Below, piece after piece: positions 6,141 to 6,901 of a stretch of 64,000 nucleotides of DNA (position 1 is its first letter; each line of letters starts with the position of its first letter). The notes beneath the pieces were generated by a model that was not told the origin of the DNA, did not search any database, and worked only from the letters and a program-made list of their open reading frames with translations. Location of the stretch: the sequence record PQ438391.1; one strand, given 5' to 3'. This DNA comes from Escherichia phage vB_Eco_T-01. The translations under genes and the position numbers were made by a program.

Positions 6141-6281
6141 ATGATATTTCTTGGATATGTGATACTTTTTCTTGCATTTTATCTATTCACTAGAGCATGT
6201 TGGATTGGGTTCTTTAGCACACCAGATGGGTTTATTTCAATAATTTTATTTTGCATTTCAATGACGGTTCTTGATATATGA
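6141..6281 (+). CDS. hypothetical small hydrophobic protein
   Basis: 46-aa ORF with GGAG RBS; its stop overlaps the next ATG (ATGA). Confidence 0.3.
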   Translation: MIFLGYVILFLAFYLFTRACWIGFFSTPDGFISIILFCISMTVLDI

Positions 6282-6901
6282 AAAAATATATAACTTATTT
6301 AACAATATATAGTGGAGATAAACTTCCTCCTTTTTATATTGGATCTACGTCTTTAGATAGGCATTTAGCTGGATATCATGGTTCAGTTTTATCTAAAAAG
6401 TATAAGAAAATTTATAATAAAGAGCTTTCAGATAATCCTCACTTATTTGATTCATGCATTTTAGCTGAATTTGATACGCGTGAAGAAGCTATTAAATGCG
6501 AGTTATATTATCAACGATTGCATGATGCAGTTAAAAATCCATTATTCTTTAATATGTCATATGCTGCTCCAAAAGGTTCATTTGGAAGAGATAATAAAGG
6601 ACAAAATCATCCATTATATGGTTCTCATAATTGTAAAGGAAATATACATTCACATGATCCATTAACAGGAAAATCTGCCTTTTTGCCTTATATTCCAGAA
6701 GGTTATGTAAAAGGAAGGTCAAATAAATTTAAAGCTTCATCACATAATAAAGGTAAAAAATGGTATAATAACGGAGTTAAGCAAATGTTATGTCATGAAC
6801 CTCCTGGTCCTGAATGGACAAAAGGAAAAATTAAAGAACTAGTTTCAAAAGCAGCTAAATTAGGATGGAAAAGACACCATGAAAATACTAAACTTGGGTG
6901 A
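6278..6901 (+). CDS. putative free-standing GIY-YIG homing endonuclease (Seg-like)
   Basis: N-terminal Y..IY..(x10)..YIGST, a downstream Arg and an acidic EFDTREEAIKCE segment are consistent with a GIY-YIG catalytic domain; C-terminal G.NHPLYG.H / NKGKKWY motifs resemble NUMOD-type DNA-binding repeats; intergenic position next to a conserved gene. Confidence 0.65.
   Translation: MKKYITYLTIYSGDKLPPFYIGSTSLDRHLAGYHGSVLSKKYKKIYNKELSDNPHLFDSCILAEFDTREEAIKCELYYQRLHDAVKNPLFFNMSYAAPKGSFGRDNKGQNHPLYGSHNCKGNIHSHDPLTGKSAFLPYIPEGYVKGRSNKFKASSHNKGKKWYNNGVKQMLCHEPPGPEWTKGKIKELVSKAAKLGWKRHHENTKLG

Follow-up and report, generated by a model that had tools for sequence, protein, structure and literature searches.

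A predicted SegG-like GIY-YIG homing endonuclease gene inserted between genes 47.1 and 47 of T4-like phages

We analyzed a window of 64,000 nucleotides from Escherichia phage vB_Eco_T-01 (sequence record PQ438391.1), a T4-like (Tequatrovirus) genome, and describe a gene of 207 codons plus stop at 6278..6901. Coordinates are window positions, and all genes of the locus lie on the + strand. The gene is predicted to encode a SegG-like free-standing homing endonuclease of the GIY-YIG family, based on the list of open reading frames (ORFs), PHROG and Pfam matches, the predicted fold, a profile match to T4 SegG and the pattern of selection. It is very probably an intact homing endonuclease gene spreading by break repair. 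We infer nuclease activity, target position, homing and self-protection from these comparisons. A reading of the sequence alone (hereafter the sequence-only reading) had proposed a mobile homing endonuclease gene at this position, and the fold, the homology to SegG, a precise insertion polymorphism and purifying selection all support the proposal. The gene is an uncharacterized new example of a well-known enzyme type and will hardly surprise a specialist.

An optional gene at the 47.1/47 junction

Pairwise alignment with T4 reveals a 601-bp insertion at 6285..6885 (+), with flanks that are ~99% identical to T4. The insert is bounded by a 7-bp direct repeat, ATGAAAA (6278-6284 and 6879-6885), and the insertion register is ambiguous within this repeat. 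At the junction, T4 reads ...GATATATGAAAA followed directly by TTTTAAATTTAGGTGATTGG, and the 47.1 stop overlaps the gene 47 ATG. In the window, the ATG of the 207-codon ORF overlaps the TGA of gene 47.1 as ATGA. The 3' end of the ORF overlaps the start of gene 47 out of frame by 23 nt (6879..6901, +), exactly as the sequence-only reading had described, and the same arrangement is found in the phages SEA1, SmallBear and avDM2. The endonuclease stop TGA sits inside the GGT-GAT that encodes G7-D8 of GDxH, the essential catalytic phosphoesterase motif of gp47. This placement of the stop recurs in SEA1 and several database homologues.

The sequence-only reading had placed the insert between a-gt and gene 47, downstream of a translationally coupled hydrophobic ORF of 46 amino acids. 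An insert is indeed present, and the ATGA overlap agrees with coupling. The small ORF (6141..6281, +) turns out to be T4 gene 47.1, encoding a predicted membrane protein that is 100% identical to T4 gp47.1 (phrog_6693, E=1.5e-31). Genomes lacking the 207-codon ORF keep gene 47.1, which is thus a resident gene outside the mobile element. The insertion site therefore lies exactly between 47.1 and 47 and not simply between a-gt and 47.

The flanks are matched by 598 records of the phage collection, of which only 68 contain the whole 1.8-kb query; the right-hand junction of the insert is found in the same 68 records. Screening for the empty junction with a 100-nt probe identified 465 records that cover it, among them T4, T2, RB7, RB27, RB68 and AR1. 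The insert is also absent from RB14. These counts include some GenBank/RefSeq duplicates and place the insert in roughly 13% of Tequatrovirus records. With 68 carrier records against 465 with an empty junction, the element is optional. Comparing the junction across T-even genomes, as the sequence-only reading had suggested, uncovered a presence-absence polymorphism. Carriers occupy at least two flanking haplotypes. Among IMG/VR contigs, no Tequatrovirus contig with the insert was found. A stand-alone ORF between conserved genes, with exact boundaries and present or absent in close relatives, is a trait of T4 Seg-type genes.

Nuclease fold and family identity

Residues 1-105 (6278..6592, +) constitute the predicted N-terminal GIY-YIG nuclease domain. 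The protein carries the motifs Y7..Y11, FY20IGST, R28, E75, N92, NHPLYGSH and KGKKWYNNG, and the GIY-YIG-like N-terminus recognized from the sequence alone is borne out by these motifs, by Pfam and PHROG matches and by the fold. PHROG 10820 matches with E=1e-94, and phrog_314, named 'homing endonuclease', with E=5e-18. Among 50 diverse members of the 170 database homologues, Pfam detects GIY-YIG in 14 (E<0.01, best 2.4e-5) and NUMOD3 in 23. An AlphaFold model built from a 50-sequence alignment reaches a mean predicted local distance difference test (pLDDT) of 86, with values >94 over residues 1-100. The best solved match to the nuclease domain (~100 N-terminal residues) is the catalytic domain of I-TevI with a Foldseek probability of 0.99. 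The top structural matches are all GIY-YIG nucleases, and similar predicted viral structures are all GIY-YIG/NUMOD homing endonucleases. Judging from the model, the first ~100 residues adopt the alpha/beta fold of GIY-YIG nucleases.

The closest T4 relative by profile comparison is SegG. The family profile aligned by hhalign matches SegG with 95.7% probability (E 1e-8, 95 columns). The same comparison found no match to SegF, and I-TevI was matched only over a weak C-terminal NUMOD3-like stretch. No T4 seg gene was matched by tblastn at E 1e-3. A tblastn match at 21563-21742 (- strand) was rejected as spurious, being located inside gene 41 on the + strand. In the alignment of homologues, Y33, S39, L56, F57, A71, E75 and N92 are invariant, and Y7, Y11, Y20-I-G-S, K40, Y42 and R68 are nearly so. 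As a putative GIY-YIG nuclease, the protein would be expected to cleave DNA in a metal-dependent manner.

Several observations weigh against a working GIY-YIG enzyme. The Pfam GIY-YIG match (PF01541, residues 4-84, E 3.1e-4) scores 21.4 bits, which is 1.2 bits below the curated cut-off of 22.6. In sequence searches of the PDB, neither the protein by itself nor a 50-sequence profile retrieved anything relevant, so that the family assignment needed the fold comparison. An NCBIfam search likewise gave no meaningful match. Furthermore, the position of the canonical catalytic arginine (R28 here) is K, N or S in relatives. The SegG alignment has a serine at this position, and SegG is given as an active enzyme in Table 1 of PMC2988022. 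The variability of R28 is therefore no argument for inactivity.

Databases also name the family differently. PHROG 10820 and RefSeq re-annotations (NC_054916, NC_054911 and others) carry the label 'HNH endonuclease', which spreads through dependent pipelines. That the protein is an HNH endonuclease is refuted by its fold and has a negligible probability; the labels are all that speaks for it. No HNH Pfam family matches the 207-residue protein at E<=10, no HNH structure is among the fold matches, where GIY-YIG nucleases rank at the top, and UniRef names the identical protein 'GIY-YIG domain-containing protein'. The PHROG and RefSeq label for this family denotes the wrong family.

The C-terminal ~100 residues are presumed to bind DNA. 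A single degenerate NUMOD3-like motif, NHPLYGSH (residues 110-117; 6605..6628, +), aligns with the NUMOD3 motif NNPxYGKxHS of relatives bearing PF07460. It is followed by two ~27-residue beta-hairpin repeats (residues 121-147 and 159-184; 6638..6829, +), which share the pattern G-x-x-H/W ... P-x-G-Y/W-x-K-G-R/K in conserved alignment columns. The model places the repeat strands at 123-126/133-136 and 161-164/169-172 with a pLDDT of ~88-94, and a terminal helix after the two hairpins. A model of the C-terminal part alone has low confidence (pLDDT 61), and the two-repeat region found no match among solved structures. The sequence-only reading had seen NUMOD-type modules in this half. The motifs are present and NHPLYGSH aligns with NUMOD3, but a Pfam scan of the protein gave neither a NUMOD match nor a recognizable helix-turn-helix domain.

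Selection, damaged copies and homologues in other genera

The ratio of nonsynonymous to synonymous substitution rates (dN/dS) is 0.05 against phage Killian (dS 0.11, three amino-acid changes), 0.10 against Salmonella phage SEA1 and 0.16-0.23 against others. In no fewer than 50 records, the encoded protein is 99-100% identical to that of the window. The gene is under purifying selection and maintained as a working gene, contrary to what would be expected of a decayed pseudogene. An inactive relic, i.e. a GIY-YIG-like ORF devoid of catalysis, is accordingly very improbable. The Pfam score below threshold, the variable arginine position and the missing NUMOD or helix-turn-helix match would fit such a relic. 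The range of dN/dS (0.05-0.23), the near-identical protein in so many records, the family-wide conservation of Y7, Y20, E75 and N92, and SegG, which lacks the arginine yet is listed as active, argue against it.

Some copies look damaged. In KNP1 and KNP5, 223 bp of the gene are replaced by 99 bp, ESh36 has an additional A within an A-run, and +1 frameshifts split the gene in two pieces in ZCEC15 and KMB22. Several of these records are marked unverified, hence we do not lean on them.

At least five further genera of T4-like phages have a homologue, 49-80% identical, immediately in front of gene 47. Examples come from Gelderlandvirus SEA1 (80%), Klebsiella phage SmallBear (70%), Winklervirus LC53 (70%), the Mosigvirus-like QL01 and vB_EcoM_005 (60-64%) and Biquartavirus avDM2 (49%). 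Most of these homologues run into the start of gene 47 at their 3' end. The '..EN..' conserved close to their C-termini corresponds to gene 47's ATGAAAAT in another reading frame. Paralogues sharing the nuclease domain and ending in a NUMOD3 tail are found directly upstream of topoisomerase gene 39 (L050 1998-2690 and L051 1998-2675), whose start they overlap by 8-14 nt. The NUMOD3 tail at this second site fits the modular retargeting known for the enzyme class.

Persistence at one position might also reflect domestication. A nuclease or regulator benefiting the phage, by excluding competitors or setting gene 47 translation, could have ceased homing. The strong purifying selection, the same position in six genera and the gene 3' end providing the translation start region of gene 47 are in line with this. 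Domestication is improbable nonetheless, as only ~13% of Tequatrovirus records carry the gene, T4, T2, RB14 and RB68 lack it, and carrier-free genomes with a precisely empty site are viable. The possibly degenerate copies (KNP1/KNP5, ESh36, ZCEC15 and KMB22), some in unverified records, point the same way. A homing endonuclease gene that still spreads remains our preferred interpretation.

Re-coded start of gene 47 and the putative target

A comparison of 8 carriers and 10 T4-type non-carriers across 3399-9560, a small sample that is not phylogenetically independent, yielded 592 variable columns. Only 4 of the 592 (6887, 6888, 6893 and 6896) fully separate the two groups. This re-coded block (6887..6896, +) reads A6887, C6888, C6893 and G6896 where the T4 type has T, T, T and A. 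All four changes are silent, fall into codons 3-6 of gene 47 and abut the insert. Across the carrier records, 67 of 68 are not T4-type at the block, and a 70-nt junction is exact in 61 and has 1-2 mismatches in another 6. Since no other site discriminates, a protective difference within 3399-9560 must be the insert and/or the four changes. The non-carrier U6 (L006) is identical to the window for ~150 bp on each side (6222-7042) save the four sites. To the right of the insert, carrier-type alleles have a frequency of 1.0, versus 0.1-0.4 in non-carriers, up to ~7070 and then decay. Carrier-associated alleles reach ~190 bp into gene 47 (6965-7070). No carrier association is seen within 370 bp to the left. 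This one-sided pattern is as expected from breaks on the gene 47 side repaired off carrier DNA.

We suggest a homing cycle centered on this junction. During mixed infection, the enzyme would cut an empty-site relative within the 5' end of gene 47 or close to it, and T4 recombination-dependent repair would copy the cassette and neighboring markers off the carrier genome. The carrier allele would escape cutting by the insertion splitting the junction and the four silent changes re-coding codons 3-6. A target at or near the junction, with the four changes protecting the carrier, is a serious possibility, if not quite a probable one. The narrower proposal that the enzyme recognizes the 47.1/47 junction ATGAAAATTTTAAATTTAGGTGATTGG itself, with the re-coded codons 3-6 of the cassette as built-in protection, is tentative. 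Even some Mosigvirus genomes have ATGAAAATTTTAAATTTAGGTGATTGG unchanged at every nucleotide. In four Mosigvirus-like genomes (L015, L016, L018 and L041), the first 29-33 nt of gene 47 equal those of T4 including synonymous positions. Gene 47 of these genomes otherwise shows ~66% nucleotide identity to other Mosigvirus-like alleles, and their gp47 is ~72% identical to that of the window. Such nucleotide-level conservation of the presumed target and translation start region is unusual, and the T4-type gene 47 start would make a good target. Replication of the re-coding in Mosigvirus and Gelderlandvirus pairs is uninformative because of a background divergence of ~15%.

A number of findings weigh against self-protection or against a target at the junction. 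The carrier P922 keeps only 3 of the 4 changes, and the non-carrier RB14 has 1 of the 4. ERS-1 (PP337211.1, L052) is the sole record combining the insert with a T4-type gene 47 start. The reliability of ERS-1 is doubtful because the 175-kb record is flagged UNVERIFIED_ORG and contains many single-base indels, which affect a-gt, the endonuclease gene and intergenic DNA alike; it is probably an error-rich or mixed assembly. The carrier SEA1 (L032 3096-3155) and its non-carrier relative (L021 3001-3060) do not differ in the first 60 nt of gene 47 but have 59 differences over the first 360 nt. The identity may be the trace of a recent exchange of the junction in Gelderlandvirus. Clusters of single-nucleotide polymorphisms (SNPs) this dense recur in the mosaic region (P ~0.03 for one anywhere in 1.2 kb). 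SNP clustering alone is therefore not significant evidence, and the argument for self-protection rests on position and association. Finally, the cut sites of characterized Seg enzymes are hundreds to thousands of bp away from the genes encoding them (PMC2988022), so the real target may lie beyond the 5.5 kb compared.

Such a distant cut site, as in SegF and SegG, is the main competitor of a junction target. The enzyme would still be a functional homing endonuclease, and the four changes would represent the hitch-hiking right end of the transferred cassette instead of self-protection. The cutting distances of free-standing T4 endonucleases (PMC2988022), the T4-type start in ERS-1, the identical gene 47 starts of SEA1 and L021, and the carrier-associated alleles extending ~190 bp into gene 47 are all compatible with a distant cut. 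It is disfavored by the lack of any other site in 3399-9560 separating carriers from T4-type non-carriers, and by U6, which is carrier-like around the junction save the four sites. We regard a distant cut as rather unlikely, though it deserves attention.

Another candidate for a protection site was a patch in a-gt (5909-5918) with five SNPs, where the window has G, A, T, T and A and T4 has T, G, C, C and G, including one Ile/Thr change. Of the 8 carriers, 6 have the window type of this patch, as against none of the 10 T4-type non-carriers. We rejected the patch since the carrier PaulHMueller is T4-type there.

The re-coded start also occurs at a precisely empty junction in nine carrier-free records, namely BCPEco_001, BCPSen_003, Ec_YwIITB1, SHFML-26 (two records), PBM-1, UGKSEcP1, UGKSEcP2 and EPIMAM01. 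They may have arisen by loss of the cassette or by gene conversion, or may represent the lineage in which the cassette first inserted. If the enzyme does recognize the junction, the nine genomes would carry naturally resistant, endonuclease-free alleles. Tequatrovirus genomes would then display the whole homing cycle with susceptible, invaded, possibly degenerating and lost-but-resistant states. Three allele classes exist in nature, the empty T4 type (T4), the re-coded carrier type (BASEL phage Bas45 PaulHMueller) and the empty re-coded type (SHFML-26). As they occur in sequenced and partly cultured phages, target recognition, self-protection and the homing cycle could be conveniently studied.

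Expression of the cassette

The cassette appears to depend on the signals of its surroundings. Upstream, a hairpin after a-gt (6099-6118, +) has a perfect 8-bp stem with a UUCG loop and is annotated as a terminator in phage SA20RB. It is followed by a MotA-type middle promoter-like sequence, GCTT-N-TATAAT (6119-6141, +), which the phage SA20RB authors annotated as a middle promoter. This sequence is likely the transcription signal of the 47.1-seg-47 unit. Its -10 element overlaps the 47.1 ATG. A transcript started from this sequence would lack 47.1, its first gene being that of the endonuclease (gene 47 in T4). No late promoter TATAAATA was found near the cassette, and a scan for sigma-70-like promoters gave no excess. 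With no promoter of its own and a middle promoter-like signal upstream, the cassette is promoter-less and uses an existing transcription unit.

At the translational level, the cassette takes over the original start context of gene 47, and its own 3' coding end supplies the new one. A purine-rich stretch in the 3' end of the cassette precedes the rebuilt gene 47 start. RNA folding around the starts of the endonuclease gene and gene 47 revealed no start-sequestering hairpin (z-scores 0.8-1.9), and translational repression in the style of I-TevI is thus unsupported. The T4 seg genes are likewise promoter-less and embed host-gene signals, which discourages their deletion (Edgell 2010 review, PMC2988022).

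Relation to known systems

T4 SegG, encoded by gene 32.1 between genes 59 and 32, has several motifs in common with the window protein, namely YIGS, K-x-Y, E, the N-containing 'FxN' and, after the nuclease domain, NHP. Both genes are promoter-less cassettes located directly upstream of an essential gene of DNA metabolism, whose expression signals they carry (PMC2988022). The two differ in insertion site (47.1/47 here, 59/32 for SegG) and in the C-terminal half. SegG also cleaves within gene 32, at a large distance from its own gene, whereas the sole carrier-linked differences found here abut the insertion. I-TevI, the endonuclease of the td intron, has a similar two-part design of nuclease, linker and DNA-binding region (the last presumed here). 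Unlike the window gene, I-TevI is intron-encoded and contains a zinc finger and a helix-turn-helix. There is no detectable sequence similarity over the nuclease domain, and R27 of I-TevI has no strictly conserved counterpart here. The gene 39 paralogues in Klebsiella phage Mexia and Escherichia phage EcWhh-1 have a nuclease domain 50-58% identical and also overlap the start of a downstream essential gene, but carry a C-terminal module recognized by Pfam as NUMOD3 and occupy another insertion site.

Within the same region, T4 mobB and an ORF between 46.1 and 46 resemble the window gene in that each is an optional endonuclease cassette flanked by conserved genes within one transcription unit. 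Their families are unrelated to it (mobB is HNH, the 46.1/46 ORF has no Pfam match). Since a-gt.2/a-gt, 47.1/47 and 46.1/46 are each optional, the block from gene 55 to 46 has three alternative endonuclease slots. The other two are empty in the window. At the mobB slot (4659..4898), a-gt comes immediately after the a-gt.2 homologue (4659..4832), and the 46.1/46 slot (8082..8345 / 8342) is empty too. The endonuclease-annotated ORF at 46.1/46 (284 amino acids when intact) is found in T2, as split ORFs, and in RB68, SHFML-26 and BCPEco_001 (loci L038 5007-5861, L047 5007-5859, L049 5007-5860 and L037 5007-5861).

The literature searched does not describe an endonuclease at the 47.1/47 site, and a review of T4 mobile elements lists none there. 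The exact protein is already public under automatic names, and in some submissions it is annotated as a putative homing endonuclease. If active, the enzyme would bias the inheritance of the a-gt/47.1/47/46 region in mixed T4-like infections. It would also create a further locus of localized marker exclusion, situated beside the phage Mre11/Rad50-type recombination nuclease.

Surrounding locus

The locus begins with gene 55 (3399..3962, +; ORF list and annotations), followed by homologues of a-gt.5 to a-gt.2 (+) and by a-gt (4899..6101, +). Downstream of the insertion, gene 47 (6879..7898, +) encodes an SbcD/Mre11-like nuclease subunit with 98.5% protein identity to T4 gp47, consistent with its annotations. 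Genes 46.2 and 46.1 (+) lie between gene 47 and gene 46 (8342..10024, +). The a-gt gene of the window (4908..6101) shares only ~91% DNA identity with T4, and several other Tequatrovirus genomes reach 97-99%. Genes 55 and 47 of the window are 95-98% identical to T4, making a-gt a local mosaic segment.
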